DNA from: a virus
Direction: 5' to 3' (one strand)
DNA length: 64,000 nt
Virus record (IMG/VR): IMGVR_UViG_3300027749_000055
Span: 32,001 to 96,000 of that record
The position numbers were made by a program, and so were the translations under genes. The notes below the pieces were generated by a model. It worked only from the letters and a program-made list of their open reading frames with translations. It was not told the origin of the DNA and did not search any database. Position 1 is the stretch's first letter. Each line of letters begins with the position of its first letter. Below are positions 27,486 to 49,519 of this stretch, piece after piece.

Positions 27486-28505
27486 TTAGATAATCGCTGT
27501 CCAGAAGTAGCCCAAGTCCTTTGCAACGACCTTGTTGTCGAAGGCGATTTCAGCCTCAACACGGTCAGCCTTCAACTCTTCCATACGGAAGCGTGAAACG
27601 CCGACAGTCGTTCCCAGACCGCCCGACACACCCGTCCACATAAACGAGTAGCCAGCCGAGGGGGTCATCAGACCAGGGTTCGGAGCCGTGTAGCAAAGCA
27701 GAGCCGCACCCGCACCACCGTTGGTGGCGACGAAGTTGTAGGTCTGCGAGTTGCTGCCTTCCTTACCCGTGTTCACAACCGACTTGGCGACCAGCACACG
27801 GTCTACTCCGAAGAGTTGAGCGAGCAGGTCTTCCGTGACGATTGCGCCCGCTTGCGTATACTTGTAGCGGTCTACGAGCAGCGGGTGGTTCTTCAGGACT
27901 TGGAACACCTTGTAGCCAAGGACGAGCGTGTTCGGCTCGTAGCCGGTGTTCTGCAGGACGATTGCCTTGGCGACTTCCACGTCCACGATAGGGTTCGACT
28001 TGTAAGTCGTCGGGGCAGCCTCGTAGTCAGACCAAGCGTAGGTCTGACTAGCGGTGGGGTTGGTCGAAGCGTCGGCCACTCCCGTAATGTCGGTTGCCCA
28101 GACACCCGTTTGGAAGTAGTCCACTGCCCACTGAACCTCACGACGGAGAAGGAGACGCTGAGTAACAAACTGCGTAGCCTCCATATCGGGGTTCAAGGGG
28201 TTGTCGGCGTTCGCACGGGTCTGGTCGCCAATGTCCTTGTGGAAGGCAAACACGTCAGTCTGATAGGTGTCCGTGGTCAGACCGTAGCCGGAACCAGCCG
28301 AAGCAGTGCCGTCAGCACGACGCTGAGCCTCGTCACGGAACCAATCGTCCTTCGTGTATTTGAAGTAGAGGTTCGACTTCTTGTCCACAGGGATAGTCGG
28401 GAAGACCTTATCCGCAATGAAGTTGTTGGTGTTCTGCAAATAAGCAACCGAGATGTTGGTCAGGATTGCGTCAATGTGAACGTTGTTTACGTTGGGTTGT
28501 GGCAT
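27486..28505 (-). CDS. Major capsid protein (HK97 fold)
   Basis: HIDAILTNISVAY.....FIADKVFP.IPV.K, PNTLVLG..V...LKNHP, C-terminal DLGYF; highly expressed-type codon usage. Confidence 0.92.
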   Translation of the reverse strand: MPQPNVNNVHIDAILTNISVAYLQNTNNFIADKVFPTIPVDKKSNLYFKYTKDDWFRDEAQRRADGTASAGSGYGLTTDTYQTDVFAFHKDIGDQTRANADNPLNPDMEATQFVTQRLLLRREVQWAVDYFQTGVWATDITGVADASTNPTASQTYAWSDYEAAPTTYKSNPIVDVEVAKAIVLQNTGYEPNTLVLGYKVFQVLKNHPLLVDRYKYTQAGAIVTEDLLAQLFGVDRVLVAKSVVNTGKEGSNSQTYNFVATNGGAGAALLCYTAPNPGLMTPSAGYSFMWTGVSGGLGTTVGVSRFRMEELKADRVEAEIAFDNKVVAKDLGYFWTAII

Positions 28506-28525
28506 TTTAGATTAGTCCTTTCTGA

Positions 28526-29278
28526 CTATGCCGCACGGCCAGCAGCGGCAGCCGCTACAGCCATAGTGATAACGTCGCCCTGAATACCCGAAGCGAGAGC
28601 CGTTCCGAGAATGTATTGGGTCGAAGACGTGGTGGTCTTTACCGAACCGGCAGAGCCGTAAGTAACCGTGCTTGCGACAGGGTTGGTAATGGTGAAGGCG
28701 TAAGAACCCGACGAACCACTGACGGCACTGATAACGCCCTCGTAGTTCAGCGAGCCAGCACCCGTGCCGGTCTGAACAATGCCCGAAACAGCCACGAACT
28801 GACCAACCGTGAAAGCAGTGGTCGAGTTAGTGGTGTAGGCAACGGTAGTGCCGCTAGCGGTTGCACCCGTAATGGTTGCAGTCGTCTGGGCGGCCGCAGA
28901 CACACCAAACTGTGCAGTGACCGCACGACCCGAAGCGTCAATGGTCAATGCGTCACCAACGGTAACGCTGTCGCCAGCGACAATTTTCGAGATACCGGAA
29001 ATGGTCACTTCAGCCTCCGACACACCCTCAATGTTTCCAGCAGCGTCGAACCAAGCCTTAGGCTGGTTCTGCAGGATACCGAGGGGACGGTCAGTAGCGA
29101 CGGTGCAAGCGGTCACGACGTTGCCGGACTCGTTGTAGGACGTAATGCTGGCAGTAGCCAACTTGACGAACGTGAACTGAGTCTGCAGGTAGGTCGAACC
29201 ACCAACGACTACGCTTGCGCCAGTAGCGTCTGCGACAGCCGTAATCTTTACAGCGTAGGGATTTTGCTCGTAAGCCAT
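28526..29278 (-). CDS. Capsid cement/decoration protein (DUF2190-like) with inserted beta module
   Basis: PLGILQNQP...AEVTISGISKIVAG.....GDALTIDASGRA...ILGTAL.....GDVI, interrupted by a ~90 aa Thr-rich module. Confidence 0.8.
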   Translation of the reverse strand: MAYEQNPYAVKITAVADATGASVVVGGSTYLQTQFTFVKLATASITSYNESGNVVTACTVATDRPLGILQNQPKAWFDAAGNIEGVSEAEVTISGISKIVAGDSVTVGDALTIDASGRAVTAQFGVSAAAQTTATITGATASGTTVAYTTNSTTAFTVGQFVAVSGIVQTGTGAGSLNYEGVISAVSGSSGSYAFTITNPVASTVTYGSAGSVKTTTSSTQYILGTALASGIQGDVITMAVAAAAAGRAA

Positions 29279-34725: not shown

Positions 34726-34754
34726 ACTCTAGCCGAACGAACGTTCGGTAGCAA
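34726..34754 (-). promoter_or_regulatory. Promoter of rpf with SOS-box-like operator in the spacer
   Basis: TTGCTA-N17-TAGAGT on the minus strand; spacer contains CGAAC-N4-GTTCG (34734-34747). Confidence 0.65.
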
Positions 34755-34794
34755 GTCCTTTATGGTTGAGCAAACACCCTTGATTTATAGGGGT

Positions 34795-35025
34795 TTAGTG
34801 GCTCAACAAATAGGTCACTTCTCGCTTTAGGCGGTCAGGGGCGGGAGTATAGGCGGGCGTTTCGGTGAAGTGCTTGACCCCAGCCTTTTGCTTGGCGGGT
34901 GTTTCGTGCGATAGGTCGAGAACGTCTAAGAGTTGCGGGAGGGTTGTGACGACCGAGCCATCGAGGTTGCGGATATCCCAACTGCGAGTCTTCAGCCAAT
35001 CCTCGTTCATCAAGTTGTTGTCCAT
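34795..35025 (-). CDS. Small hypothetical protein directly after the polyvalent protein
   Basis: 76 aa; starts 2 nt after the stop of the 1222-aa gene. Confidence 0.65.
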   Translation of the reverse strand: MDNNLMNEDWLKTRSWDIRNLDGSVVTTLPQLLDVLDLSHETPAKQKAGVKHFTETPAYTPAPDRLKREVTYLLSH

Positions 35026-35027
35026 TT

Positions 35028-38000
35028 TTACTCAGCCACCGTTTCGTAGTTCCATTTGTCCCTACCGCCCAATAAGACTATCTCACGCTCACTATAGCAA
35101 CCCAACCCCGTTTCAGCACAGGAAAAGACTCGGCTAGCGGGCGCAACGCCGGAGAGAACCATACCTTTATAGTCACTCCCTTGGGTCGAGAAAGTGCCGT
35201 CGGCAAACTTTTGGGCAACAATTGAGTCATACGAGAACGAACTCAGGGGACGGGTGGCGATTTCGGGGAATCCGCCAGCACCCGTGATTTCATTGAATTC
35301 GTCTTCGAAAAATTCCATACCTCGATACAGCGGGACTTGGGTAATACCGTTCTTGGCAAGGTAGCCCTGCGTCTCGTCGTATTGAGCACGGAGAAAGGCT
35401 CGGTAGAGGTCGCCATTTTTGCTGTATTCGTCGTCTACTTTGTTGCCGTCTTCACCTTGCCATTCAGCCGTTTCCTTCAGACCAAACTCTTCGGCGGCGG
35501 CTTTTTGAATCGCCAAATTCTTTGTGGTTTCGTTTGAACCAATTGCCCACAAACTTACAAGTGCGCTTGCGCCAAGTTCGGCAAGCCGTTGCTTGATTCG
35601 AGGGTCGTCGCCGTGAACAACCTCAGTGCCATTTTCAACCGCTTGGTCTGCGTCGGATTCTTTCAAAAGATAGGGTGCTTCAAAACCTTCGTCCCCAATG
35701 CTTCTAAAGGTGTAGAGGGAGTCGTGGTCGAAATAAACCTGTGGCACAACATCAAAGTCGCCCGCAATAAAACCCTGTTCCAATAAATAAAACCGAGGGC
35801 AAGCCGTAGCAAGGCGGTCAGCCCATTTGTCCCCCATACGAGCGGCAATATTTTCCGCCACTTTTTGCTTCAGTTCGGGCGCAACTTGTTCTGAATCTTC
35901 AGGTTCCATTGAGTCACGGTCAAAATCTTCGCCCTCGATTGCCACGCCAAGTTTGTCTACGAGTGGAACCATTGCGTCGTAGGAATCAACGTGTGGGTCA
36001 ATTTTCCCAAGGGATTCCCTGTGTCGTCCTGAACCAGGCCCGCCCTTGCGGACAGAAATCAACTTTGTGTAGTCAGGATTACTTGTAGATTTGGTGATAA
36101 ACACTTTGTTAGGCTTTCGCCAGACGGTATCTTCAAAACCCATAACACGGTTGTATTTGGGGTCTAGGCTTTCAGCAAAGTTCTTTCCCGCTTGTGAAGC
36201 AAAGCCACCGTGCAAAATTAAGGGCTTGTCCCCCATCATTTTTATTTGGTTTCGCATAGCGTCCACCATTTTGCGAGCAATACCCTGACCACGCACTTTT
36301 TCATCGGTCTGAATGTGCCAGATTTTCACCACAGGGCCTGCGATGTTTTTGTCACCCCAGTCATAGTGCGCTTTCGCTTGACCGATGATTACACCGTCTT
36401 TGTTGCGAACTTCCATACCAATACGGTCATCATTACCGTATTTTCCGTCACTAAGCAATCCTTCGTCAGCCGTGATTTTGTATTCATTGCCATTCTCGTC
36501 TGTGAAGGTTCGTTCGCCCTCACCCGTCTTAGTCCACTGATTACCCTCAGGCTTACGACCCGAACCAGGCCCGCCCTTACCAATCTCGACGGGGCTATGA
36601 CCCTCTCCTTGGTCGGCGGTGAAGCGAGACTGCTTGGCTTCTTGGCGATTTGATTCCGCCTTGGCTTCTAATTGCGTCTTTTCACTACCCTGCGCTTGCT
36701 TGGCGGCTGTCGAGTAAAGACGAGCGGCTGATTCGTGAGCAAAAGCGGCTGAATCCCACTTCTCCTTACGGCGCAAGTCCCACGCCCGTTGCTCAGCAGT
36801 TTGAGCGGCTTGCAAAGATTTGGAAACGTTTTGGCTGTTTTTTTTGACTTCTTTTGCTTGGTCTTCTTCAAATTGTGCGACAATTGCTAGGTAGTAAAGA
36901 CGAGAGGCTTCGGTTTCGTTGCCATTTTCTTGCTCACGCTTGGCTTCTTCACGCAGTTCCGAGGCGGTCAGGTCGCCGTCTTTTGACCGAGCGGCTATTT
37001 TTGCAACATCAGCGATTTTACTATCGTCAAGAACCGTAATGTAGTTGGCGTTTGGAACTACTGCCGATAGGTCGTAGACAAGGCTGTGGTTCTCATCACT
37101 ATAAGTGCCTTCGCCTTCGTTCACATAGTAATAACCATTTTTGGCGTTGTTTCTGGTAATTTGCCCACGCATACGGCTATTGGCTTGGTCATCACCAACG
37201 GGCGACCACACGCTGTTTTTCATACTTCCCGTAATAATCACGGGGGTAATATCGGGCTTGCTGTCCATAGCGATAGGGGTTCCGTCGGAGTAAACCGCTT
37301 CGCCTTGGTGGTCGGCGGGGTAGTGGGGAATTTGCGCCCAATCGTCCTCAGCACCGTAGCCAGCACCCGTTGAGACGATAAGCGTCTTGCCGTATTCCTC
37401 GGTTCCGTCCCAATCCTTACCGTCAGCCCGTCTGCCAATTCGTGCTTCAAGTGCGTCCTTTGCGGCTTTGTAGCCCCCAACGTGAACGCCGTAAGAGGCT
37501 TGTTTGAGTCCGATTTTGCCATTTGGAGAGCCGTGCCAAAAAACAGCGTGTGATTCTCCGTCGGGGGTGGTAATCATTTCGGGAAGGGCGTAAGTCAATT
37601 CGCCCCAGAGTCCGCCCAAAAATTTTCCGTATCGCTTTGCGCCATTTTCTTTGTGCCTACCGCTGCCCGGCCCACCCTTTTCCACCTTGTCCAACTGAGC
37701 AACAACTTTCTTTGCCCACGAATAACCAGCGTCTCCGCCCCACGCATACCAAGCAACCTTGCCTGGGCTGGGTTCGTTCCAATGCGGGCTGTCCTTGTCG
37801 CCTTGGTGACGGTCAAAATACGCCTTCATACGGCGAATGGTGGTTTCCGATACTGACGTACCACGGGCGAGGTCTGAGGCTCGCTTGCGTCCAACGGGGG
37901 TGAAGCCAGAGCCAGCCTTGCCGTCTTTGAGCCATTCCAACGCTTTTTTTCCAGCGTCTTGAACGCCCTGCGGGGGTGAGAACGTGTCGGATTTTTCCAC

Positions 38001-38696
38001 GACGGCGAGGGCTTGAAACGCCTCAATCAACTTGCACAAGTTTTGGTAGAGGTTGATGAACTTTTCTTCCATTCCCACAGATTCAAAGAAGTGGCTGAGG
38101 GTAATGATTTTGCAAAGGGTGAACTGCAAGGATTCTTCGTCTACGCCTCGGTTCCAAAGTTCCGCTACAAACTCCGGCGAAGGGGTGCGAGGACGGAAAT
38201 TACACAAAGCGTGGTCAATGCCCACAATGCGCCCGTCGGAGGTAAAGATGACGTTCTTGGGTCGGCGGTCAGAGTTGGCGGTCAGGTAGTCAAAAAGACG
38301 CAGAGCGGTTCCCTGAGCGTTGTCGGGAATCTCCTTGTCTGCGTTTTTACCAGACTCGCCTTCAATGTAAGGCATAATCACCGTTGTAGCGTCCATAGAG
38401 GTAAAGAAGCAGTCTCGGACAGGTGCGTTCATTGCTTCGCCTACACGGGCAGCCAACCACTCCTGCGTGGCAAGGAGTGGTGCGGGGTAGAAGCGACCCG
38501 TCTTATTACCAACCCAATCCTTCAGGACTTTCTCCACGCCGCCAGAGCCGTCGGCAAAAATGACGAATTGGAAACCGTTATTTTGCTTACCCCCGAAGGT
38601 TCCCTCTAGGGGGTTGCGTCGAACTATGTTTGTATTGGTAAATGTAACAAAATTAGGCTGGAAAGTGCCGTCCACGGCTAACCCCGATTCAGCCAC
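35028..38696 (-). CDS. Polyvalent multi-enzyme protein: PI3/4-kinase(HipA)-like + ADP-ribosyltransferase-like + GNAT + ADP-ribosyltransferase
   Basis: FDYLTANSDRRPKN...GIDH (kinase); FWHGS...GVHVG...YYVNEGEG (H-type ART-like); RGQGIARKM (GNAT); LYRGM...LSSFS...EREIV (R-S-E ART); modules separated by three KGGPGSGR motifs. Confidence 0.75.
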   Translation of the reverse strand: MAESGLAVDGTFQPNFVTFTNTNIVRRNPLEGTFGGKQNNGFQFVIFADGSGGVEKVLKDWVGNKTGRFYPAPLLATQEWLAARVGEAMNAPVRDCFFTSMDATTVIMPYIEGESGKNADKEIPDNAQGTALRLFDYLTANSDRRPKNVIFTSDGRIVGIDHALCNFRPRTPSPEFVAELWNRGVDEESLQFTLCKIITLSHFFESVGMEEKFINLYQNLCKLIEAFQALAVVEKSDTFSPPQGVQDAGKKALEWLKDGKAGSGFTPVGRKRASDLARGTSVSETTIRRMKAYFDRHQGDKDSPHWNEPSPGKVAWYAWGGDAGYSWAKKVVAQLDKVEKGGPGSGRHKENGAKRYGKFLGGLWGELTYALPEMITTPDGESHAVFWHGSPNGKIGLKQASYGVHVGGYKAAKDALEARIGRRADGKDWDGTEEYGKTLIVSTGAGYGAEDDWAQIPHYPADHQGEAVYSDGTPIAMDSKPDITPVIITGSMKNSVWSPVGDDQANSRMRGQITRNNAKNGYYYVNEGEGTYSDENHSLVYDLSAVVPNANYITVLDDSKIADVAKIAARSKDGDLTASELREEAKREQENGNETEASRLYYLAIVAQFEEDQAKEVKKNSQNVSKSLQAAQTAEQRAWDLRRKEKWDSAAFAHESAARLYSTAAKQAQGSEKTQLEAKAESNRQEAKQSRFTADQGEGHSPVEIGKGGPGSGRKPEGNQWTKTGEGERTFTDENGNEYKITADEGLLSDGKYGNDDRIGMEVRNKDGVIIGQAKAHYDWGDKNIAGPVVKIWHIQTDEKVRGQGIARKMVDAMRNQIKMMGDKPLILHGGFASQAGKNFAESLDPKYNRVMGFEDTVWRKPNKVFITKSTSNPDYTKLISVRKGGPGSGRHRESLGKIDPHVDSYDAMVPLVDKLGVAIEGEDFDRDSMEPEDSEQVAPELKQKVAENIAARMGDKWADRLATACPRFYLLEQGFIAGDFDVVPQVYFDHDSLYTFRSIGDEGFEAPYLLKESDADQAVENGTEVVHGDDPRIKQRLAELGASALVSLWAIGSNETTKNLAIQKAAAEEFGLKETAEWQGEDGNKVDDEYSKNGDLYRAFLRAQYDETQGYLAKNGITQVPLYRGMEFFEDEFNEITGAGGFPEIATRPLSSFSYDSIVAQKFADGTFSTQGSDYKGMVLSGVAPASRVFSCAETGLGCYSEREIVLLGGRDKWNYETVAE

Positions 38697-39013
38697 TCGT
38701 CAAATGAGGTCACAGTCGGTTCGGTGGTGGTGGTGGTGGTGCTGGGTTGCCACGGCGAAGTCAGCGGGGCGAGACAGGTTGAGCAGGATTTTGCCACGGC
38801 GTTTGTCGCAAACTTACGCTTGCCGTTGGCGGTCTTCTCAATGTCCGTCGGGGCGACACGGGAGAGATTTTGGTGTCCGTTGGGGCACTTGGTAGTGAAA
38901 AGTAGGGCGTCAGGGGCGGTGTAGTTCAGCCCACGGTATTCACCCTTGTAAAACTCTTGATAAACGCCACCCTTGCCCAGAAGCGACGCACTCGTAAAGT
39001 CGTTTGCTTCCAT
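38678..39013 (-). CDS. Small Zn-ribbon protein
   Basis: Likely start MEANDF at 39013; CPNGH...CSTC. Confidence 0.6.
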   Translation of the reverse strand: MEANDFTSASLLGKGGVYQEFYKGEYRGLNYTAPDALLFTTKCPNGHQNLSRVAPTDIEKTANGKRKFATNAVAKSCSTCLAPLTSPWQPSTTTTTTEPTVTSFDEWLNRG

Positions 39014-39308: not shown

Positions 39309-41024
39309 TTAGCCGTAAACAACGTCGCCGTAGAAGACGAGTTGCCAGAAAGCGTCGTTTCCGATTGCGTCGGTGTCGTCCAGCGCACCAAGTCGTCCGG
39401 CATACTTATCGTTGTATGCAGAGTAGGCACGGGCAATGTCGCTCATATTGGCAGTCTTGACTGCTGAGTGGTCGCCGTCGTCTCCCTTTTCGGGGTCGTC
39501 GCACTTCGCCGTGAACGTAACCTTCGACCAATCATCAGTCGGGCTGGGCTTGCCGTCTTCTCCAAGGACATTTTCTTGGGATTCGTAACCAACGGTTCCG
39601 GTGTCCTTGCCGTTCGAAATCTTGATTTCGCCAAACCAACTGCCCCAATACGACATATTGCTGCACACTCCGTCGAGCAACTCACGGGCGTTCACGGGGG
39701 TTGGAATAGTCATCTTGTCGCCATTGAAGGCGGGGGCGGCTTGACCCATTTGGCTGCTGATACTCGGACTAGCCGTTTCGAGTTCCGCTAGGTCAAGACC
39801 TTCTTCGTCCGCAACAATCTTGATTGCGTCGTTGATTGCGTCCGACAACTTCCCAGACGATTCAAGAAGAGACATACCGTTGTCGTCGCCCAAATATTCG
39901 TGGTCTGAGTCAGTGAGGGCGTAGTAAGGCCAATAATCAGGCATTTGCTCGTCCTGCAAGGCGGACAACTTTTCGTCAGTGTCGAAACCGGCGGCAATCA
40001 GTTCTTCGCCGTCTTGGGCTGCGCTGCCATTGGGAAGGGGTTGATACAGTTCGTGTTCACTGCTAACCAAGTATTTTCTACCTGACGGGGCGGTAATGGT
40101 AGCCATTGTTGCGCCCGCAGGTTGAAACTCTGCCCACTGACGGTCAGGGTTTACGTCTTCGTTTATCTTCAACTTCATTCCCTTGGGGAGAGAAAATGAA
40201 GAAGCGTCTAGCGTTGCGCCCTCAGGCTTACGACCCGAACCAGGCCCGCCCTTGCGAACCTTAGACTTGGCATACTCCGAAGGAACGTTACCTTCCCATT
40301 GTTCCGGCATTTCACTAGGGTCTGCCTTGACGAGTGACGCAATTGCCCTGTCGGTGGTTGCGTTTGCTTCCTCAGCGTTGGAAATAGCGTCGCCGTGGTC
40401 GTTTAGTGCGCCTTCTTCGTCGCCACCCTCGAACTTTTGAACGGCGGAGTTGGCGAGTTGTGAAGCCAGCGAGTGCAACTCGGCAGCCTGACCAAAGAGA
40501 GCCGAGGCACTGTTGAGGTCACGACCTGCCTGACCATTGGTGACGAGCGACCGTTGGAACAGTTCATTCTCATTGCCCTTGCAAATGTCCGCAAGGCGGG
40601 CAGACTCGTCTGCCGCTTCCTTCAGTTCGTCGGTGTCTTGGGCGTATTGAATAGCGGTGGGCTGCATACTTGCCGACATTTGGATATCGCCCGTCGTGTA
40701 TGCGCTAGGACGACGACCCGAACCAGGCCCGCCCTTAGAGACTTCCTCGTCCGGCCAGACACCGTTCACCGGCAGAACGTAGTAGTCGTCGTAGTGGTGT
40801 TCGGAGTATTCGGGGTCGTCCTCGTCCGGCATTGGGTCGTTCTCGTAGATGTGACTCCAACCGTCCTCGAATGAGGGGAAAGTCTTGCCACCGAAAAGGG
40901 TGTTGTTAGCCCAATCCTTGATGTGGAAAAGGGTCTTGGTGCGACCACTGCCCGGCCCGCCCTTGGTGAGCGGGAACTCCGCCTCGTTTATGAGGTTATC
41001 GGTAGTAAAGGGGTTGTAGGTCAT
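39309..41024 (-). CDS. Modular putative internal head protein (3 KGGPGSGR motifs, acidic modules)
   Basis: 571 aa; motifs at 40964, 40736 and 40253. Confidence 0.7.
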   Translation of the reverse strand: MTYNPFTTDNLINEAEFPLTKGGPGSGRTKTLFHIKDWANNTLFGGKTFPSFEDGWSHIYENDPMPDEDDPEYSEHHYDDYYVLPVNGVWPDEEVSKGGPGSGRRPSAYTTGDIQMSASMQPTAIQYAQDTDELKEAADESARLADICKGNENELFQRSLVTNGQAGRDLNSASALFGQAAELHSLASQLANSAVQKFEGGDEEGALNDHGDAISNAEEANATTDRAIASLVKADPSEMPEQWEGNVPSEYAKSKVRKGGPGSGRKPEGATLDASSFSLPKGMKLKINEDVNPDRQWAEFQPAGATMATITAPSGRKYLVSSEHELYQPLPNGSAAQDGEELIAAGFDTDEKLSALQDEQMPDYWPYYALTDSDHEYLGDDNGMSLLESSGKLSDAINDAIKIVADEEGLDLAELETASPSISSQMGQAAPAFNGDKMTIPTPVNARELLDGVCSNMSYWGSWFGEIKISNGKDTGTVGYESQENVLGEDGKPSPTDDWSKVTFTAKCDDPEKGDDGDHSAVKTANMSDIARAYSAYNDKYAGRLGALDDTDAIGNDAFWQLVFYGDVVYG

Positions 41025-41033
41025 AATAAAATC

Positions 41034-41852
41034 CTATCTCACAATCTTCTTTAGTTCAGCCTTGATTTCCTTCGCCTTGTCTCCACGCCACGTCGAAGCG
41101 TTGGCGAGGAAGTAATTGACGATTGACTTTGCGGAGTCAAGTCCATACTTGTCCGTAACGTCGTTTAGGTCGCCCATAGCGTCGAGGTAGGGCTTTGCGC
41201 CAAAGAAAACCTTGGAACCCCAATCACGGCGAATTTCTGAAGCGATTTCACTGAGGGGGCGGTGTCCCGATTGGGTCATATTTCCAGCCTCAGCAGTGCG
41301 TCCCGAACCCGGCCCACCCTTTTTGACGGACATAGCGTCGAGTTGAGCAATGGCGGAGTCAAGAGCCTTACTCATATCCTTGGAAAAATCCACCCAACTT
41401 TGAGGGGTTTCGGGGTTATCAAGACGTTCTTGTGGCGAACCCCAACGCTTGTAGTCCTCGTTTATGTCGTAAAGAAAGCCTGACCATTCTTCGGGAGTCT
41501 CAATCTTGCTCACTCGCTTGTCGTTGAGATACATATCACGGTCAGAAACAATTTCGTCAAGTTCTTCGTGGTTAAAGTTTTCCTTCAGAACGTTAGCGAT
41601 AGCAACGTCCGTGGTTCCAAGGCTCTTTTCCCATTGGTTGCCACGGAACGGGTGTCCGCCCGCTTCGCCCTTTTGGAAACGCTCTGCCTTTTGGAAGAAC
41701 AGTTCAAGTTCGACAGGTGAAAAAAGTTCAGACACAGCAAACGTAGACTTGTGAACCTTCGCACCACGCCGAGGGCGAGGCTTGCGAGTAGTTGAGCGTG
41801 ACGACTTACGAGCCGCCTTTGCCATAAAGTCTTCTAAGCGTTCTTCGGACAC
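41034..41852 (-). CDS. Modular putative internal head protein (KGEAGGHPFRGNQW and KGGPGSGR motifs)
   Basis: 272 aa; two modules, each preceded by a Lys-Gly motif. Confidence 0.7.
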   Translation of the reverse strand: MSEERLEDFMAKAARKSSRSTTRKPRPRRGAKVHKSTFAVSELFSPVELELFFQKAERFQKGEAGGHPFRGNQWEKSLGTTDVAIANVLKENFNHEELDEIVSDRDMYLNDKRVSKIETPEEWSGFLYDINEDYKRWGSPQERLDNPETPQSWVDFSKDMSKALDSAIAQLDAMSVKKGGPGSGRTAEAGNMTQSGHRPLSEIASEIRRDWGSKVFFGAKPYLDAMGDLNDVTDKYGLDSAKSIVNYFLANASTWRGDKAKEIKAELKKIVR

Positions 41853-41884
41853 AGTTTTTGCCTTTCTAGCAGTGAAATACAGGA

Positions 41885-43096
41885 CTAGGCGGACATAAAG
41901 CCGGTGTCGCCCATAACCCGACTCGTTTCACCACGGGTGGGGCTGGTCGCTGCTTCAGCGGAAATTCCAGCCTTCTCACGGCAAACGCCAGCCAAGTGCT
42001 TCGCACCATACGCCATATTACGAGCGTCGGCAGCCTTTTCCTTCCACTGCTCACCAAGTGCAGCGTCAGCGTCCTTGTGACCCTTGGCAGCCCATTCGAG
42101 GTGAGTGCCACCGAAACCGTGGGCGTGACCCTGAGCCAACATAAGCAACTTCGACGCTTCGTCATACTTCTCAGCAGCCTGAGCGTAAGTGTCCTTGCTC
42201 TTGGTCTTGTCGGCTTCGCTACGCAACTTGTCGGCAGAACGGAGAGCCTCACGACCAGCCTTGAAATTAGCCTCGTAGCCAGCCCCGTAGTTCTTGTTAC
42301 GGGTCTTCCAGCCAACACGGACGGTCTTGCCCTCAGGAGTCTTCTCACGGGTGTTTACAAGTTCGCCTGTGTGCTGGTTGGCACGACCACCACCGTCGCC
42401 CTTGTGACGACCTGAGCGACCCTTCACGCCATACTTGGTGACGTTGATGTAGGACTGAAATCCCGCCGACTTTTGGAAGTCACGGGTAAGAAGCGAAGAA
42501 GTGCTGAACGACTTAGAAAAATCTTCGTCCTCGTCGTAGTAGGTGTCCTCAGCCTGTGCAGGGAAACGACCCATTTGGCTTTCGTGAACCAAACCGTCGT
42601 TCAAACCTGAGCAGCACGGGCACGACGAGTCGCCGTCACCGAAGCAAAGGGGGCACATAACCAAAACGGCTTCCTTGGCAAACTTCATTTCAATTCCTTT
42701 CGCTGCGGGCGCAGACTTAGTAATTTGGGGGGTTGATTCGCCCTTGGCAAAGTCACGCAGACCGCCAAGGATTTCCGAAGCCTTGGTGAACATTTCACCA
42801 GCCGCTTCGTGTGCCTTGTCTGCCTCACGGAAGCCAGCAAGTGCGTTGTTGTAAGCCTTCTTCAACTCGGTGGAGTTCCAAGCGTTCTTAGCCACCGCCT
42901 CGAAGTATGCGATTTCGGTAGCCTTCAGGTATTCCGTAGCCTTTTGGAGACGGAATGAGGTGTTTTCCAATTCGCCACGGGCGACCACTTCGTCACGGCT
43001 CGCTTTAGCAATTTGAGTGGCGGCGAGAACGGGGTCTGCTGAACCCTTCTGCACAAACGAGACAGTCTTGGGGGAACTGTTGGGAACCTGAATCAT
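41885..43096 (-). CDS. Modular putative internal head protein (variant KYGVKGRSGRH motif, CxxC/CxxC finger)
   Basis: 403 aa; Ala-rich helices; CPLCFGDGDSSCPCCSG; preceded by the TTCCAA-N9-TAGCAT promoter motif. Confidence 0.7.
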   Translation of the reverse strand: MIQVPNSSPKTVSFVQKGSADPVLAATQIAKASRDEVVARGELENTSFRLQKATEYLKATEIAYFEAVAKNAWNSTELKKAYNNALAGFREADKAHEAAGEMFTKASEILGGLRDFAKGESTPQITKSAPAAKGIEMKFAKEAVLVMCPLCFGDGDSSCPCCSGLNDGLVHESQMGRFPAQAEDTYYDEDEDFSKSFSTSSLLTRDFQKSAGFQSYINVTKYGVKGRSGRHKGDGGGRANQHTGELVNTREKTPEGKTVRVGWKTRNKNYGAGYEANFKAGREALRSADKLRSEADKTKSKDTYAQAAEKYDEASKLLMLAQGHAHGFGGTHLEWAAKGHKDADAALGEQWKEKAADARNMAYGAKHLAGVCREKAGISAEAATSPTRGETSRVMGDTGFMSA

Positions 43097-43155
43097 TGGA
43101 AAAATCCTTTCGGTTGTTCGTGAAAATGCTACACCGCACTTTGGAAAAAGGCGGT

Positions 43156-44316
43156 CTAGTTACCCTCTGCTTCGGAAGCGGCGTGTGAAGAGTCGGCTGC
43201 GCCGAATGAAGCACCGTCAGCGTCGTCGTGCAGGCTGTTCAAATACTCGTCTTCTTCGTCATCTGAGGTCTTCCACGCTCGACGGTGTGCCTCGGCTGCG
43301 TAGTGGTGCTCTTGAGCGGCTTCACGGTGCGCCTTGGCTACTTCCGGCTTGCCAGCAACGTCGGCGGTCTGAGCGAGGATTTCGTGTTCCTTGGCAAGAC
43401 CTTCGTGCTGTCGAGCGGCTTCGGCGGTGTAGGCGACCATTGTGTCGTCTGAGAGTTTGTCGGCTCGGTCAGCAATGTCCTTGGAAGCCTTCTTGGTGTA
43501 ATCAGCGTCCTTGCCGGAGTCCTTTTTACCACCGCTGGTCTTGGACGAATTGCCCTTCGAACCCTTTGGGTAACGACCCGAACCCTCACCGCCCTTGGTG
43601 ACGGAGGCTGAGGCTGACCGCATAGCGGCTGACTGCATAACGGGGGCTAGTGAGCGTGAAGCGATGGTTTGGATATAGTCGGCAACATTTTCGGCTGCGT
43701 ATCGCTTTGCGTTTTCCAAAGTAGGCCCGACGGGAGTGTGTTCGAAAAACTTGCTTGGCTTCCCAGCCTCACTGACGGTGAAATAACCGCTGACGTAACC
43801 ACGGGCGGGACGACCATTATCGCCAAGTGATTGCTGACTACGGTAGGTAATCGTCAAATCGTGACCAGCAACGGCAGCACCTTGGGAGTCGCCATTCTTC
43901 ATTTGGGTCAGTGAGCCAACAAAAAGTCGAATCGGGGTCATTTCGAGGATATTTGCACCCTCGGCGTGACGACCTGAACCCGCACCACCCTTGGCGACCA
44001 TATATTCACCGTTGTAGATAAGGGTGGACTTGTCGTTAGCGTCCATACCAGCACCAAACATTGCGCCAGCGGCTTCGAGCAGTTGGGCACGGTTGGCGGG
44101 GTTCACCTCGACGGCTCGAACAAGGTCATCACGGCAGGAAAAGAACTCCGCAGAAGCGGTCAGCATAAGGTTGCTCGCCTCACGGATTTCACCATTGGCG
44201 TAAGCGGCTTCGGCAAACTTCATCAACGACGCACCGAGTTCAGCCTTCTTCTGAGCGTTAGCAAGCACCGAGTTCAGGCTGGCTGCGCCGTGATTCTTAT
44301 TGACATTCTTCATCAT
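43156..44316 (-). CDS. Modular putative internal head protein (KGGAGSGRH, KGGEGSGRY)
   Basis: 386 aa; C-terminal His/Ala heptad module. Confidence 0.7.
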   Translation of the reverse strand: MMKNVNKNHGAASLNSVLANAQKKAELGASLMKFAEAAYANGEIREASNLMLTASAEFFSCRDDLVRAVEVNPANRAQLLEAAGAMFGAGMDANDKSTLIYNGEYMVAKGGAGSGRHAEGANILEMTPIRLFVGSLTQMKNGDSQGAAVAGHDLTITYRSQQSLGDNGRPARGYVSGYFTVSEAGKPSKFFEHTPVGPTLENAKRYAAENVADYIQTIASRSLAPVMQSAAMRSASASVTKGGEGSGRYPKGSKGNSSKTSGGKKDSGKDADYTKKASKDIADRADKLSDDTMVAYTAEAARQHEGLAKEHEILAQTADVAGKPEVAKAHREAAQEHHYAAEAHRRAWKTSDDEEDEYLNSLHDDADGASFGAADSSHAASEAEGN

Positions 44317-44322
44317 TTTTCC

Positions 44323-45237
44323 TTACGCTTGACCGTCACGACGGACGGCTTCTTCAAAGTCTTTGTCGGCACGGGCGGGAACGCCTCGAAGGTCGGCTGC
44401 CTTGGCACTGCGCTGAACCCACGACGGGTGAAGGGTGGAAACATCACGGAGTGAAGCCGCAAGTCCACCGTGGCGAAGGTTGGCAGAACCGTGTTCCTTG
44501 ATTGCTTTTTCCAAAGAAGGCAGGACTTCGGGCGATACTTTGTCTCGCATAGCCATAAGAGCCTTTTTCACGCCGACGTGTGCGGCGGCTACGTCACGGT
44601 GGTAGGCGTAAACCTCGTCCTCGTCACGCATATTGTGAGGCTTACCCAACTTGCTGTCCAAAAGAGTCTTGGCGTTCTTGTAGTTGTCGTAGCCGTGAGG
44701 GGTGCGACCAGAGCCAGGCCCACCTTTACGGAGAGCCGACTTGTGGGCGTATCCAAAGTAGCCACTCAGGTCAGCGACGGGAGGCTCGACGGTGGCGGGG
44801 GGTGCGGTGGGCATTTCACGCTCAATGAGGTCAATAAGGCTGTTGGTCACATCTGCGCTGTCTCGAAAGAGACGAGCGGTGTCGTAGTTGTCTACCATTG
44901 AGTGAAAGTATGCGTCGTTACGCATTTTGCTCACATCTTCACGCATTTCGGCAATGTGCTGGCTCAAAGGCTTCGAGTATGCCGCCTCAATGCGGTCTGC
45001 CATTGAGGTAGCAGTGCGACCAATTCGTGCATTTTGACGGCGAACCTGACCAATAATCGTGTCGCCGTATTCGGGCTTGTATCGGTTGCCGAGAACGTCG
45101 GTCTTGGGTCGCTTGCCGGTGCGGGGGGAGTCCCAATCGTTTGCCTTGGCTTCGGCGGCGATAGCACGAAGACGGGCAACCGCTTGTGCGTGTCGCCCAG
45201 AGCCAGGCCCGCCCTTAGTGAATTCGAACTTAGACAT
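44323..45237 (-). CDS. Modular putative internal head protein (2 KGGPGSGR motifs)
   Basis: Likely start MSKFEFTKGGPGSGRH at 45237. Confidence 0.7.
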   Translation of the reverse strand: MSKFEFTKGGPGSGRHAQAVARLRAIAAEAKANDWDSPRTGKRPKTDVLGNRYKPEYGDTIIGQVRRQNARIGRTATSMADRIEAAYSKPLSQHIAEMREDVSKMRNDAYFHSMVDNYDTARLFRDSADVTNSLIDLIEREMPTAPPATVEPPVADLSGYFGYAHKSALRKGGPGSGRTPHGYDNYKNAKTLLDSKLGKPHNMRDEDEVYAYHRDVAAAHVGVKKALMAMRDKVSPEVLPSLEKAIKEHGSANLRHGGLAASLRDVSTLHPSWVQRSAKAADLRGVPARADKDFEEAVRRDGQA

Positions 45238-45239
45238 AA

Positions 45240-45698
45240 TTATCCTTCCAAAGAAACAGAGAGTTGCCACGCCCACTTGGAGTGAGCGTCAATTCGGTCT
45301 GCCAAAAAGTTAGCAATGCCTTGCTCGTTGAGCGATGTTGCCATATCAAAAGCGTCCTTCAGGCTTTCCAAAACGCCTTCATTTGTGCGAAGAAGGTCGT
45401 CCACAAGGTTCTGGGCAGTGAAATCGTCTACGGGGCTGTTGTCCACCGAAGAAAAGGCGGTGAGCGCAGAAAACGTAAAGGGTGCAAAAACACCGACCTT
45501 GCGAATGTTCTCCGCTAAGGGGTCAATGCTGTCGTAAACGTCCTCGTAGATTTCCTCAAACTTGCTGTGCCACTGCGGGAAGTCACCACCGACCACGTTC
45601 CAATGGAAGCCGTGGACACGGTGATACATAATCGTCACATTGGCTAAGCAGGTGCTTAGCAAGTCCCCAAGGGGTGCGCTCTCCTTACGAATACGCAT
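45240..45698 (-). CDS. dps: Dps family ferritin-like protein
   Basis: HGFHWNVVGGDF.QWH.KFEEIY......D.LAE.IR...HSKWAWQL Dps signature. Confidence 0.92.
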   Translation of the reverse strand: MRIRKESAPLGDLLSTCLANVTIMYHRVHGFHWNVVGGDFPQWHSKFEEIYEDVYDSIDPLAENIRKVGVFAPFTFSALTAFSSVDNSPVDDFTAQNLVDDLLRTNEGVLESLKDAFDMATSLNEQGIANFLADRIDAHSKWAWQLSVSLEG

Positions 45699-45700
45699 TT

Positions 45701-47632
45701 TTACGCCGAACGAGGGCGACGAATCACTGCGCCTTCACGCAGAGTCCTGTCGTTGATTGCCTGACGGAAAGCGTGTGCTACTTCGCTCGCAGATTCCGCA
45801 GAACGAATGGTTTTTTCAGCGACGTTGGCTGCCTTGTCTGCCTTGTCTGCAAGACGCTGACCATCAACCGAATCGGGGTCGCCACCCTTGCGGAGAAAGC
45901 GAGAGTAGTCATTAGCGGTCTTAGAAGCCTCACGCATTGCACGACGACCCATATGCGTTGCTTCGTAGACCTTGCCAGCGGCTTCACCCAAGTTGGTGTT
46001 CGTCATTGAGTAGAAACGCTTGGGCGACTGCAGAAGGTAGGTAGCCATAGTGCCGTGGAACGAGGCTTCGTGCAGGTGTTCTTCAGCCTTTCCATACTCT
46101 CCACGGTTCACCAATGCACGGGCGGCTGCAATGTGGGCGGCTGCGGCTTCGAGGTGCTGACCGTGGTTGAAGTTTTCAGTGCCAGGCCGAATGTCAAAAG
46201 TTACGCCTTGACCGTGAGCCGAGGTCTTGCGGTTGCCACGGAAGCGCAACTTTTCGTTACTGCCTTCTTCCCTGTGGCGACCTGAGCCCTCACCGCCCTT
46301 ACGCACCTTCGACTTGTTGAAAACAATGGCGGGTTCGCCCATTTCGTTTTCAATGGTGAGGCACTGAACGGCAAGGTCACGGAGACGAGCGGCCTCACGG
46401 GAGGCTGCGCCAATAGCGTCACCGTCACCGAAGGGCTTGAACTCGCTAACCAAAAAGTCGTAGAAGGTGGCGGACTGACGGAAGACCGTAGCGGCGGCTA
46501 CGAACATTCCACGCTCAACCAGAGCGTCAGCCTCGTCTTCCAATGCAACAGCCGTATCAACGAGGTCTTGCACATTTGATTTGTTGATTTTTATTTGTCC
46601 TCCTACGGACTTAGTTATCGAGAATTCGAGGTGAACTGCGTCGTCGTCACCGACAACGGCGGTCACGCCGCCACGGCCAAAATAAGATTGAACTGCGTCG
46701 GAGAGTTCCTGACCATTGGGAATGTCTCTATCCCAGAAGCCAGTACCGTGACCGTTGGCGGTCAAAACAATGTCGTCACCAATGTTTTCGTCGGGCAGAC
46801 CCGATTGTTCAAGGGCGGCAATGTTGTCGCCAACAAAGTCAAAAATTGCGTCGCCCAAAGCGTTAGCGTCTCCACGGTCAAAGTCGTCAATACTGTAAGT
46901 TCCGTCCAAGAACCCACTCCATTCGTCGCCGTCGTCGGGCATAGTCTCAGTGGCAAGAAGCGCACCAAGCGCATTGCGAGTAATAACTTGCAGGTCAAAG
47001 ACACGTCCGTCCAAAGTCTTCAACTTGGGGAGATTGCCGTCCAAAAAGGTCGTGGTTCTTTCGGGGTGTCGTCCTGAGCCAGGCCCGCCTTTGGCAACTA
47101 CTTTGCTGTCGGGGTCGTTGTATCCAAGGAAGAGTGAGCCGCCAATGTAAACCTTGTCGCTTTCATTTTTTTGCGACAACTTTTCTGCGTCGAGAGTGGC
47201 AACGGTGGCTGCTTTGGAAGCCGCTGAAACTTGGCTAGAGGTTGCCTTGGGTTTGTCGAAGCCAGCGAGAGCCTGCGCCTCTGGTGTGGTGGGTTGTGCC
47301 CACTCGCCCATTTTGTTAGCGATAGTAGCCGCCGCCTTGTAGTGAGCGTCAGCGGCGGCGAGGTTTGCCCGAACTGCACGGTCATCACCAGCCGTTGCTT
47401 GTGCAAGTTGCTTGTGCAGGTCAGCCATAATTTCGTGCGCTTCAATAGCGGCGTTCGCTTGGTCGGGAGTAAGGTTCTTGGCATTTTCCAGAACAAGGTT
47501 AGAGAGACGAACTGCCTCGCCGCCCAAGGTTTCCTTGGTGTGAGTTGAACCCTTGGGGTAGCGACCTGAACCTGCACCGCCCTTGGCAACGTTGAGCCAT
47601 TGCTCAACCGTTTTAGTGAAACTGTCCGTCAT
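45701..47632 (-). CDS. Modular putative internal head protein (3 KGG[APE]GSGR motifs)
   Basis: 643 aa; motifs at 47584, 47092 and 46300; includes an LTANGHGTGFWDR module and His/Ala helices. Confidence 0.7.
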   Translation of the reverse strand: MTDSFTKTVEQWLNVAKGGAGSGRYPKGSTHTKETLGGEAVRLSNLVLENAKNLTPDQANAAIEAHEIMADLHKQLAQATAGDDRAVRANLAAADAHYKAAATIANKMGEWAQPTTPEAQALAGFDKPKATSSQVSAASKAATVATLDAEKLSQKNESDKVYIGGSLFLGYNDPDSKVVAKGGPGSGRHPERTTTFLDGNLPKLKTLDGRVFDLQVITRNALGALLATETMPDDGDEWSGFLDGTYSIDDFDRGDANALGDAIFDFVGDNIAALEQSGLPDENIGDDIVLTANGHGTGFWDRDIPNGQELSDAVQSYFGRGGVTAVVGDDDAVHLEFSITKSVGGQIKINKSNVQDLVDTAVALEDEADALVERGMFVAAATVFRQSATFYDFLVSEFKPFGDGDAIGAASREAARLRDLAVQCLTIENEMGEPAIVFNKSKVRKGGEGSGRHREEGSNEKLRFRGNRKTSAHGQGVTFDIRPGTENFNHGQHLEAAAAHIAAARALVNRGEYGKAEEHLHEASFHGTMATYLLQSPKRFYSMTNTNLGEAAGKVYEATHMGRRAMREASKTANDYSRFLRKGGDPDSVDGQRLADKADKAANVAEKTIRSAESASEVAHAFRQAINDRTLREGAVIRRPRSA

Positions 47633-48004: not shown

Positions 48005-49519
48005 TTAGTTGTCTCCTAAGAATGTCTTGTAGGGCGATTCTTCCACGGGAAGGTCGGCTTCGACACCTGAGCCCGTGCCACCGATTGAGTAGCCACGGAG
48101 TTTGCCTTCCTTCACAAGTTCCCAAGCCCACGGTTCCCACTGAACACCGAGGAAAACGGTTCCGGCGGGGAATGAAACCTGCTTGATTTCACCACTGTTT
48201 GCCTGAAGCATTGGAACGGTGACTTCGTGCGGCCAAGTGAGGGCTTCGAGCCATTCTCCCGCCACAATGTCCACGTTGTGCTGAAGGCGAATCTGCCTGT
48301 CTCCGTTGCGGACGTAGCCCCAGAGTGCTTCTTGGAGTTCCTGCGGGTCAGTCCACTCGCCGTGAGCGTCTGAGCGATAAGGCACATACCACGGGCCCAT
48401 TGTGTAGCGTTGCTCGTCCGACTTGCGAATTTGATTGGGAATTAACTCGGATTTTTGCAGAAGGTTTGCGTCCTGCACAACCTCAGGGTTTACTTCTTCA
48501 ATAACAGTCATAGTTTCCGGCACAAACTTGGGCTTGCGACGGAAACTGCCGACAAATGAGCCCACTCCGCCACCGTTGCTCGGTGCGTCAATGTGGACGC
48601 TGGCAACGTCGGGGTTATTTTTGCGGTAGGGACGGCGGGGAGCGTCCTCGGAATCGTCCTCGTCACTTTCCATATCTTCTTCTTCTTGGTCTTCGGGAGA
48701 GCCAAAAATGTCCTCGTCTTCTTCGTCACGGTCACGACCAAAGCCAAAGAACTTGTTGTATTCGACCTCAGAAGTGGCTTCCGCCTCTTCCAAAACTTCA
48801 ACCATATTCAGACGACACCAACCGTCAGCGTCGCACTGAACGGCAACCCATTGGCAACCATTGAGAGTGCCCGCCACGCAGTTTGAGCAAGTCAAACCAC
48901 GGTCACGGAACGGTGAAATCGAGACGTAGGACACGTCAGTTGTGGGGAAACGACCCAGATTTTGAACCGTCTCGTCCAAATCCTCGGCAAGTTCAACCTG
49001 CCACGGGTCAAGACCGTCCTTCCAATTCGAACCCAACATTTCACTATCGTCAGAAGACGAAGAATCGCTGGAATCTGAACTGTCGCTGGACGAAGAAGAA
49101 TCACTGCTGTCCGAGTATTCGCTTGAACTGTCGTCGTATTCGGAAGAATCTTCCATAGAACTGTAGTCATCTGAGTCATCTTCGGTGTCTTCTTGCATAG
49201 CCGAGAGAATGGCTGCGACGGTAGCGGGGTTTAGCGTCACCTGAACGTCCGTGGAAGAATCGTCTTCAACGTCGGCAGGAACGGGGCTGGGCGTGAATGA
49301 AAACGGGAAGCCGACAGCCTTCTTGCTAGGAACCATTTTGAGGGAAACCTCTCCGTTTTTTTCCACGGCGGTCAATGTTGCGGTTTCGTAACCCTCGTTG
49401 AGTAGTCGTGCGGCGTATTCCCGCACCTCCCCGTCAATGGATTTGTTGATAATAACGCTGGCGAGTTCAACTTCTTCTATCACGTCAATAATCTTTGAGT
49501 TGTCCACAACTTCTCCCAC
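48005..49519 (-). CDS. XkdF-like prohead serine protease with long acidic N-terminal region
   Basis: C-terminal RYTMGPWYVP...DAHGE...IRLQH...GTVFLGV....AWELVKEGKLRGYSIGG; directly downstream of the portal. Confidence 0.85.
   Translation of the reverse strand: MGEVVDNSKIIDVIEEVELASVIINKSIDGEVREYAARLLNEGYETATLTAVEKNGEVSLKMVPSKKAVGFPFSFTPSPVPADVEDDSSTDVQVTLNPATVAAILSAMQEDTEDDSDDYSSMEDSSEYDDSSSEYSDSSDSSSSSDSSDSSDSSSSDDSEMLGSNWKDGLDPWQVELAEDLDETVQNLGRFPTTDVSYVSISPFRDRGLTCSNCVAGTLNGCQWVAVQCDADGWCRLNMVEVLEEAEATSEVEYNKFFGFGRDRDEEDEDIFGSPEDQEEEDMESDEDDSEDAPRRPYRKNNPDVASVHIDAPSNGGGVGSFVGSFRRKPKFVPETMTVIEEVNPEVVQDANLLQKSELIPNQIRKSDEQRYTMGPWYVPYRSDAHGEWTDPQELQEALWGYVRNGDRQIRLQHNVDIVAGEWLEALTWPHEVTVPMLQANSGEIKQVSFPAGTVFLGVQWEPWAWELVKEGKLRGYSIGGTGSGVEADLPVEESPYKTFLGDN

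Follow-up and report, generated by a model that had tools for sequence, protein, structure and literature searches.

A tag-punctuated polyprotein gene in the head module of an IMG/VR phage: a candidate set of capsid-borne, host-modifying enzymes

Why would a phage join several unrelated enzymes in one long polypeptide among its head genes, and how might such enzymes be separated from one another? The question is raised by an open reading frame (ORF) in the head module of a 113.7 kb phage genome; the ORF lies in the 64,000-nucleotide window analysed here (positions 32,001 to 96,000 of IMG/VR record IMGVR_UViG_3300027749_000055; Table 1). The ORF is real, although the GTG codon at V8, which is located 2 nt past the stop codon of the upstream ORF, is probably the true start; homologues of the polyprotein (hereafter P0001) start at the equivalent of residue 11–12. 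The gene is on the same strand as, and contiguous with, the head genes and is flanked by the portal and protease genes and by those for the scaffold and the major head protein. The polyvalent proteins of phages and conjugative elements described by Iyer, Burroughs, Anand, de Souza and Aravind in 2017 offer a frame for such a gene: virions are predicted to carry those that bear ART, kinase and GNAT domains, assemblin-like peptidases have been proposed as their processors, and a MuF or MPTase domain is frequent but not obligatory (PMC5512222). A sequence-only reading of the locus had placed the gene in this head-associated effector class and recognised no MuF domain in it. Both points are borne out, as at least two unrelated effector domains occur together in a late/head gene context and no Phage_Mu_F domain was found across the whole genome; Pfam found no peptidase domain in P0001.

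Table 1. Features of the polyprotein gene and its surroundings; ↓ marks the putative cut.
Feature	Residues	Coordinates	Strand	Remarks
76-aa gene		34795..35025	-	begins 2 nt past polyprotein stop; conserved partner of ART-bearing polyproteins
Polyvalent polyprotein gene (P0001)		35028..38696	-	1222 aa from GTG 38696; likelier GTG 38675
Putative protein-kinase-like domain, PI4K/HipA/CtkA type	19–235	37992..38642	-	DRRPKN 143–148, IDH 160–162
Helical module tied to phage head genes	236–337	37686..37991	-	phrog_2859
Junction tag 1		37653..37685	-	V-E-K340(↓)GGPGSGRH
Divergent ART-fold domain (weak assignment)	381–560	37017..37556	-	conserved H388, H405, E529; outside Pfam
Helical spacer	561–704	36585..37016	-	638–705 seen after kinase in relatives
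Junction tag 2		36552..36584	-	I-G-K707(↓)GGPGSGRK
GNAT acetyltransferase	716–881	36054..36551	-	RGQGIA 802–807
Junction tag 3		36021..36053	-	V-R-K884(↓)GGPGSGRH
N-terminal subdomain, unknown fold	893–1022	35631..36020	-	accompanies ART in some relatives
Predicted R-S-ExE ADP-ribosyltransferase, DRAT-like	1023–1222	35031..35630	-	R1125, SSFS 1152–1155, E1203/E1205
Five more ORFs with 11 junction tags		39309..47632	-	putative cargo
504-aa protein with C-terminal S78_2/XkdF prohead protease domain (48068–48430)		48005..49519	-	candidate processing enzyme
Mu-type portal protein		49669..51339	-	
Major head protein		27486–28505	-	tag-free
Scaffold-like protein		28526–29278	-	tag-free; head and scaffold span 27486..29278

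The domain inventory proposed earlier (a kinase, two ART types and an acetyltransferase) is supported overall, the first ART-like domain being the member for which structural scores are weak. The N-terminal region had been read as PI3/4-kinase/HipA-like, and residues 19–235 carry two of the motifs on which that reading was based (the catalytic loop D143-RRPK-N148, and I160-D161-H162 with the metal-binding Asp, each conserved in all or almost all of 27 sequences) and model as a PI4K/HipA/CtkA-like kinase. The AF2 model (pLDDT 87.5) has a bilobal fold, which VIA aligned with CtkA at Z 13.0 (186 aligned residues, rmsd 3.4), with PI4KIIalpha at 12.6 and with HipA at 11.5, and Foldseek returned 26 kinase matches at E<=1e-3. 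P0001 did not reach the gathering score of Pfam PF00454 (14.7 versus 27.1 bits), the catalytic-loop region alone being aligned; Pfam PI3_PI4_kinase matches five of six members of the kinase family (best E 3.6e-5), and the sole addition from NCBIfam was a weak SCO1664-family match on the kinase loop. The helical module that follows (residues 236–340), also noticed beforehand, matches phrog_2859 with an E of 8e-32, is the sole segment named by PHROGs and is also present in head-assembly proteins of other phages. Its HTH-like look is an impression only (E 1.1).

The region behind the first tag had been called an H-G-S type ART-like domain. The WHGS motif is present (residues 387–390) and the fold matches are nearly all to ARTs, at low scores: with the model of residues 381–560 (pLDDT 81.6), about 40 of 44 VIA rows were ART-fold proteins (MbcT, RES, ParT, PARPs, DT, ExoA, Arr and DarT), with Z reaching 4.4 at most, and Foldseek against the PDB gave no match at E<=1e-3, so that we assign the ART fold only weakly. 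Matches in BFVD were weak, yet enriched in ART-PolyVal-like proteins. The conserved triad is H-H-E, with an invariant His (H405) at the strand-2 position where H-Y-E/D ARTs have Tyr; in the secondary structure of the model, taken without superposition, H388 closes a strand and E529 precedes one. This domain is widespread, with 256 relatives (counted as cluster representatives), none of them covered by Pfam; tblastn found none in GenBank phages, and the protein atlas gave no usable match for segment 341–707. Single-sequence and profile searches of the PDB with all segments returned no significant match.

For the remainder of the protein, the acetyltransferase and the R-S-ExE ART that had been called there both find support. 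Residues 764–819 score 23.6 bits against Acetyltransf_1, which is above the Pfam gathering cut-off of 20.7, and the acetyl-CoA motif R/Q-x-x-G-x-G/A is in place as R802-GQG-I-A807. The sequence of residues 1023–1222 supports a predicted R-S-ExE, DRAT-like ADP-ribosyltransferase: in 14 diverse sequences R1125-G, E1203 and E1205 are invariant and SSFS (1152–1155) is nearly so. P0001 itself has no match to DRAT (Pfam PF07357), whereas three relatives pass the cut-off of 25 bits in the homologous region: P0004 with 28.4 bits, P0010 with 27.6 and L025 with 26.1. A search for related loci with an aligned ART query found three, and one with a single ART sequence found none. Homologues of the 76-aa gene lie directly downstream of other ART-bearing polyproteins (four other polyprotein types, eight further IMG/VR contigs), and this gene is plausibly a partner of the ART-bearing polyprotein. 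Its product has no recognisable family; tblastn found no homologue in GenBank phages, and the protein atlas no usable match. We suggest that it probably restrains the ART, or chaperones it, within the producing cell. The R-S-ExE triad and a small conserved gene directly downstream recall DraT and the toxin-type ARTs with immunity or antitoxin genes, but here the small gene does not encode a DraG-type glycohydrolase.

The Lys motifs that had been pointed out between the segments follow the pattern [VILF]-x-K-GG-x-GSG-R and are placed, in P0001, at K340↓G341, K707↓G708 and K884↓G885. The genome contains 40 copies of this tag, all on the minus strand, distributed over 18 ORFs (about 9400 aa in total, with up to six tags in one ORF) that take up roughly one quarter of the coding capacity and form three clusters, two of them far from the head genes. 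One untagged ORF of 403 aa sits among the five further tagged ORFs of Table 1. A hydrophobic residue at position −2 and a Lys before the Gly run are found in 40 of 40 copies. Ser is encoded by both TCN and AGY and Arg by both CGN and AGR, with synonymous variation being free; because the codon types of both residues are mixed, selection on the tag acts at the peptide level. Tag residues lie in modelled disordered linkers with pLDDT below 50, which indicates that the tag is flexible. Tags are also preceded by N-terminal leaders of 7–20 aa, and each added cassette is headed by a tag. Conservation runs 7–15 residues past the Lys (here GG-x-GSG-R-H-x-E), which exceeds the usual need of a protease site, and the tag may thus have another or an additional role. 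We rejected a P-loop, since no K-S/T stands behind the Gly run and the tags are located at domain borders, and we rejected chance, under which about 2e-4 copies are expected against the 40 observed. A full-text literature search for the tag strings found no phage paper.

Polyproteins of related phages, among which the domain modules are reshuffled, are punctuated by a longer tag, K-GD-xx-GH-x-F-H-GNQ-Y/W, with up to eight per polyprotein, and also show the form ...GH-x-GRPG-xx-GGS. A difference in cassettes is seen in P0003, which is 95% identical to P0001 over residues 1–337 and lacks exactly two tag-headed cassettes, the ART-like domain and the GNAT, with junctions 2 and 3 fused as one hybrid tag; the boundaries of cassette gain or loss coincide exactly with the tag. 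Each of the six records checked, this genome and five relatives, encodes one S78_2 (XkdF-type) prohead protease, and in relative L018 a tag lies inside the polypeptide of the protease itself. Arthrobacter phage Laroye, a cultured kin, has the same protease type without the tag, and the presence of the protease does not, therefore, imply the tag. As the major head protein and the scaffold are tag-free, the specificity of the protease is unreadable from a canonical substrate.

Overall, we lean, with a confidence slightly above even, towards a late, head-loaded effector polyprotein that is cut at its tags by the S78_2 protease and whose enzymes are delivered to the host. A polyvalent effector polyprotein would be produced late, alongside the head proteins, with four catalytic modules: the PI4K/HipA/CtkA-like kinase, the divergent H-H-E ART-fold domain, the GNAT and the R-S-ExE DRAT-like ADP-ribosyltransferase. 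It would enter the procapsid, where the S78_2 (XkdF/HK97-type) prohead protease would cleave each tag behind its Lys, and the freed enzymes would accompany the DNA out and modify host targets, by phosphorylation, ADP-ribosylation and acetylation, as infection starts. We infer cleavage, packaging and injection alike; the freeing of units at the Lys motifs, which had been proposed from the sequence, is strongly but indirectly supported by 40 peptide-selected copies, the disordered linkers, the leaders, the gain and loss of cassettes and the S78_2 protease. A parallel would be found in T4, where Alt and the internal proteins have short capsid-targeting leaders that the gp21 prohead protease removes at L/I-x-E. 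As expected of T4 internal-protein-type cargo, a conserved short motif recurs at leader and module ends, and the head module encodes a prohead protease. Eighteen tagged ORFs that fill such a share of the coding capacity (roughly one quarter) are much for capsid cargo, which counts against reading all of them as such.

Conservation that extends well past the Lys, both here and in relatives, together with a tag at the head of every cassette, would suit a targeting or anchoring peptide (for the scaffold, the portal, the inner capsid wall or the DNA) on a polyprotein that is packaged and ejected whole, in the manner of the N4 vRNAP, which is packaged unprocessed (PMC5512222). We regard this as unlikely, as the hydrophobic residue and the Lys present in every copy form a protease-subsite pattern, the short leaders before the tag look like cleavable targeting leaders, and a single anchor per protein would be enough, yet an ORF can hold six tags. 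That P0003 and P0001 differ in cassettes exactly at tags, that the former has one hybrid tag for junctions 2 and 3 and that modules are shuffled among relatives could, alternatively, mean that the tag serves above all as a flexible linker and as a recombination joint for cassette swapping, without a role in processing. This seems quite improbable: the free variation of the tag codons shows that conservation does not lie in DNA identity, the invariant Lys and the upstream hydrophobic residue would be superfluous in a linker, and a linker would be pointless 7–20 residues from an N-terminus. Finally, P0001 could be a cytoplasmic enzyme of the infected cell (compare T4 ModA/ModB and the T7 kinase) and not virion cargo, its location in the head module being incidental, which would fit the lack of a fused MuF, portal or other known head-anchoring domain and the distance of two of the three tagged-ORF clusters from the head genes. 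We consider this very improbable given that the gene stands in one unbroken, same-strand block with the portal, protease, scaffold and capsid genes, that other phages have module 236–340 in their head-assembly proteins and that a late-made host-reprogramming enzyme is most sensible if carried to the next cell.

The favoured reading, a capsid-borne polyprotein cut at its tags, has partial counterparts in several known systems. T4 Alt is likewise an R-S-E ART that is packaged in the head and injected, and the short N-terminal leaders of T4 end in a conserved protease motif; in contrast to the single-domain T4 proteins, which are cut once, we have here multi-module chains with up to six internal tags of another sequence, an S78_2 protease and a processing that is presumed. 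In the giant phages phiKZ and SPN3US, according to the accounts of ejection and inner-body proteins in PMC10052503 and PMC7411985, a single prohead protease that acts at a short consensus processes numerous proteins inside the head, which are ejected into the host; phage lineage and motif differ from ours, and in our genome the tag stands at the front of shuffled enzyme cassettes within long polyproteins. P0001 shares with the polyvalent proteins (PMC5512222) the presence of several unrelated effector domains per polypeptide (ART, kinase and GNAT being the commonest protein-modifying ones), a GNAT adjoining an ART, a late/head gene location and a predicted delivery with the DNA. It differs from them in having neither MuF nor a zincin-like MPTase, in a kinase that is PI4K/HipA/CtkA-like where theirs is a truncated Ser/Thr/Tyr kinase, in the H-H-E triad of its first ART-like domain where theirs is H-Y-D, and in the conserved junction tag between modules, which is absent from that paper.

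It is possible, though we would place it somewhat short of even, that a phage lineage, apparently one of freshwater or soil actinobacteria, uses a peptide code not described before, [VILF]-x-K↓G-(G/D)...G-H, to label roughly one quarter of its coding capacity as cassettes of capsid cargo, with polyproteins cut by the S78_2 protease and cassettes freely reshuffled between phages; the cargo would include a new, widespread H-H-E ART-fold family absent from Pfam, from the PDB (by sequence) and from GenBank phages, as well as an ART to which the 76-aa partner is dedicated. The gene offers three tractable enzymes with clear catalytic motifs and, further, gives access to this large uncharacterised ART-fold family and to a candidate ART/partner pair, and the tag is a simple sequence handle with which cargo cassettes can be found in metagenomic phages. 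Polyvalent proteins are the presumed first-strike toolkit of the phage, and how the domains of those without MuF or a metallopeptidase separate after delivery is a question to which a conserved tag beside an S78_2 protease brings a concrete, testable processing rule.

The polyprotein gene at 35028-38696 (minus strand; product P0001) is open for 1222 codons. Its listed start, GTG 38696, overlaps the upstream ORF. The true product is probably 7 residues shorter, since this start has no obvious ribosome-binding site, an alternative GTG (38675) lies 2 nt past the stop of the upstream ORF, and homologous proteins start at a point equivalent to residue 11-12. The window belongs to one viral contig of 113,659 bp (91% complete by CheckV), whose closest cultured kin are Arthrobacter and Microbacterium phages (capsid 50-54% identity, protease domain ~58%). 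Because portal and protease precede the gene and scaffold and major head protein follow it in the same order, it lies within the head-morphogenesis block. Two short GC-rich inverted repeats at 34700-34790 (minus strand) resemble terminators and would close the cargo operon; just downstream of the cargo block, in the head module, a family-2 glycosyltransferase is fused to TPR repeats (32462-33694, minus strand). A giant ORF of >3117 aa (1-9351, minus strand), which extends past the low end of the window, has no junction tags.

Gene order around the polyprotein gene (window coordinates)
Feature	Coordinates	Strand	Place
Mu-type portal	49669-51339	-	first in minus-strand gene order
504-aa protein, C-terminus a Peptidase_S78_2/XkdF prohead protease	48005-49519	-	after portal
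Five tag-bearing ORFs of no recognised family and, among them, one untagged 403-aa ORF	39309-47632	-	
Small untagged ORF	38678-39145	-	between tag-bearing ORFs and polyprotein gene
76-aa gene, then terminator-like hairpins	34795-35025 (gene)	-	after polyprotein gene
Scaffold-like protein	28526-29278	-	farther along same order
Major head protein	27486-28505	-	farther along same order

The Pfam PI3_PI4_kinase family and TIGR03843 match P0001 below cut-off and over the catalytic-loop region only; five of six family members match PF00454 (best E 3.6e-5), and D143-RRPK-N148 and I-D161-H are invariant or near-invariant in 27 sequences. Residues 1-340 were modelled with AF2 from a 27-sequence alignment (pLDDT 87.5), and the model was compared with 48,161 chains by VIA-align. 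CtkA was the best match (Z 13.0, 186 residues, rmsd 3.4), with PI4KIIalpha (Z 12.6), Fam20C (Z 12.4), HipA (Z 11.5), MavQ, HipT, Rio kinases and actin-fragmin kinase also found, all spanning residues 19-235, and a Foldseek check returned 26 kinases at E<=1e-3. The sequence-only reading of residues 1-235 as PI3/4-kinase/HipA-like is thus borne out. The adjoining residues 236-340, which it had called a helical module, are predicted as five helices in the same model and match phrog_2859 (E 8e-32). A tblastn search also places this module in proteins whose genes lie between portal and capsid in other phages, among them phages of Vibrio, Roseobacter, Synechococcus and Halorubrum; the S-CBS1 "major head protein" fusion carries it at its N-terminal end, and a lake actinophage has it within a "capsid maturation protease".

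Towards the C-terminus, residues 708-884 exceed the Acetyltransf_1 cut-off, carry the acetyl-CoA motif RGQGIA at 802-807, as expected of the GNAT proposed there, and share 47% identity with the GNAT of the homologue P0007. The core that follows (1023-1216) is also present in 18 long multidomain proteins, and regions homologous to it in P0004, P0010 and locus L025 exceed the Pfam DRAT cut-off. Across 14 sequences of 24-87% identity, R1125-G, S1192, E1203 and E1205 never vary and SSFS (1152-1155) almost never does, a sequence pattern that marks residues 885-1222 as a classical R-S-ExE ADP-ribosyltransferase (ART), in agreement with the earlier assignment.

Residues 381-560 form a strongly conserved domain (256 representatives at E<=1e-3 in a search of 1.84 billion clusters), found alone (about 190-250 aa) or within proteins of up to 4564 aa. 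None of 29 members has a Pfam family over it, and neither a PDB sequence search nor tblastn against 50,697 GenBank phage records gave a match. With its model (pLDDT 81.6), Foldseek found nothing in the PDB at E<=1e-3; in an independent structure search ~40 of 44 rows were ART-fold proteins, all at Z <=4.4 (MbcT, RES toxins, ParT, NatT, tankyrases, PARP1-4, exotoxin A, diphtheria and cholix toxins, RhsP2, Arr, DarT, LT), and the weak BFVD matches were enriched in "ART-PolyVal-like" proteins. H388 (WHGS, strand end), H405 (GxHVG strand), Y524, N526 and E529, just ahead of a strand, are invariant. We read this region, the original H-G-S ART-like call, as a divergent ART-superfamily domain of H-H-E configuration, a fold assignment that is probable rather than secure. 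One non-toxin row, among the best matches, was a domain of the cyanophage A4 pre-ejectosome protein (PDB 9k3a chain B, residues 1418-1600; Z 4.4), not named an ART in the structure paper; this domain, in an ejection protein of solved structure, may have an ART fold that has gone unrecognised. Residues 561-707 are helical, and the stretch 638-705 also follows the kinase in relatives.

The modules of P0001 meet at K340|G341, K707|G708 and K884|G885, each within a junction tag, [VILF]-x-K-GG-[PEAVQK]-GSG-R-[HYT]-x-E, of which the window holds 14 copies and the genome 40 (two ending in V, not R), where ~2e-4 would be expected by chance. All 40 are on the minus strand, in 18 ORFs totalling ~9400 aa and forming three clusters, placed between modules or else behind an N-terminal stretch of 7-20 residues; tag residues are predicted to be disordered (pLDDT <50, residues 1-22 of the 341-575 model). 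Most of the 18 ORFs have no Pfam match whatever. DUF3626 (PF12294) is a further tagged cassette (genome 5085-7877, L122:3586-6378; also P0006), as are pentapeptide-repeat modules, one placed behind the ART in the 2070-aa polyprotein of a relative (L014:9914-16123) and one within one of the genome's own tagged ORFs (genome 7885-9648, L122:6386-8149). The pentapeptide-repeat family includes DNA-mimic proteins such as Qnr/MfpA.

The kinase is common to 34 IMG/VR loci (54-68% identity), and the relatives follow the same tag grammar in longer forms. Their polyproteins (up to 2416 aa) carry [VI]-x-K-GD-xx-GH-x-F-H-GNQ-[YW] every 170-400 residues, other ORFs of these loci h-x-K-GG-x-GSG-xxx-GH-x-F-x-GNQ-[YW], and more distant ART-bearing proteins GG-P-GSG-N-[FW]-GH-x-GRPG-xx-GGS; the L027 contig has 18 copies of the short form seen here. 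Since 80 unrelated viral loci with the ART-like domain lack the tag, it is lineage-specific.

That the prohead protease cleaves at the tags is the best reading, which we hold with slightly better than even confidence; the main rivals are that the tag is a targeting signal, left uncleaved, or a recombination joint. Exactly one S78_2 protease is encoded in the genome, and one was present in all five relatives examined. At L018:25-2103, the protease polypeptide (693 aa) has an extra module with a junction tag (residue 362) at its head, which is compatible with self-processing. Two points argue against a simple pairing of tag and protease: in Arthrobacter phage Laroye the same protease type and a MuF-like gp17 occur and no tag, and the capsid and scaffold proteins of this genome are untagged. 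Cassette behaviour is seen directly in P0003, which is 95% identical to P0001 over residues 1-337, lacks the tag-headed ART-like cassette and the GNAT cassette, and has junctions 2 and 3 merged in one hybrid tag. Because tag codons vary freely (Ser as TCA, TCG, TCT, TCC, AGT and AGC; Arg as CGN and AGR), it is the peptide, not the DNA, that is conserved. Processing of polyvalent proteins has been proposed via metallopeptidase domains or C-terminal assemblin-like peptidases, and no junction motif is described there (PMC5512222); full-text literature searches with these tag strings yielded no paper on phages. In the protease-bearing protein, long Asp/Ser/Glu-rich low-complexity stretches (aa 85-160 and 265-300) precede the S78_2 domain, and the N-terminal part has no Pfam match. 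PHROG matches labelled 'RNA ligase' and 'DNA methyltransferase' sit on aa 339-493, the protease region; these labels seem to stem from partners fused to it in other phages.

The 76-aa gene had been placed immediately downstream, and indeed starts 2 nt past the polyprotein stop. Its product has no family match in Pfam, PHROGs, NCBIfam, tblastn of GenBank phages or a protein atlas. Homologues (38-49% identity; invariant E-D-W, T, W-D, L-P and L-K positions) are encoded 8-240 nt downstream of ART-bearing polyproteins at L025, L027, six loci within L010-L017 and the more distant L002, and span four other polyprotein types on 8 further contigs, as L025 and L038 share one. A 71-aa protein in its 90% cluster is on a 3476-bp contig; the contig of P0003 is also 3476 bp. 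No homologue was found at kinase loci without the ART, nor a detectable one at the distant ART loci L001 and L003. Because homologues follow ART-bearing polyproteins and are absent from ART-less kinase loci, the gene is linked to the R-S-ExE ART or its polyprotein, and its product is a candidate inhibitor or chaperone.

Overall, a single gene carrying a kinase, two ART types and an acetyltransferase is confirmed, though the fold of the first ART is probable rather than secure. P0001 can be placed among the polyvalent proteins, a known class. It differs from them in lacking MuF (none was found in the whole genome, extending the earlier view that none was recognisable) and MPTase, in having a kinase of another type, in adding an uncatalogued ART-fold family, and in its conserved, portable junction tag.
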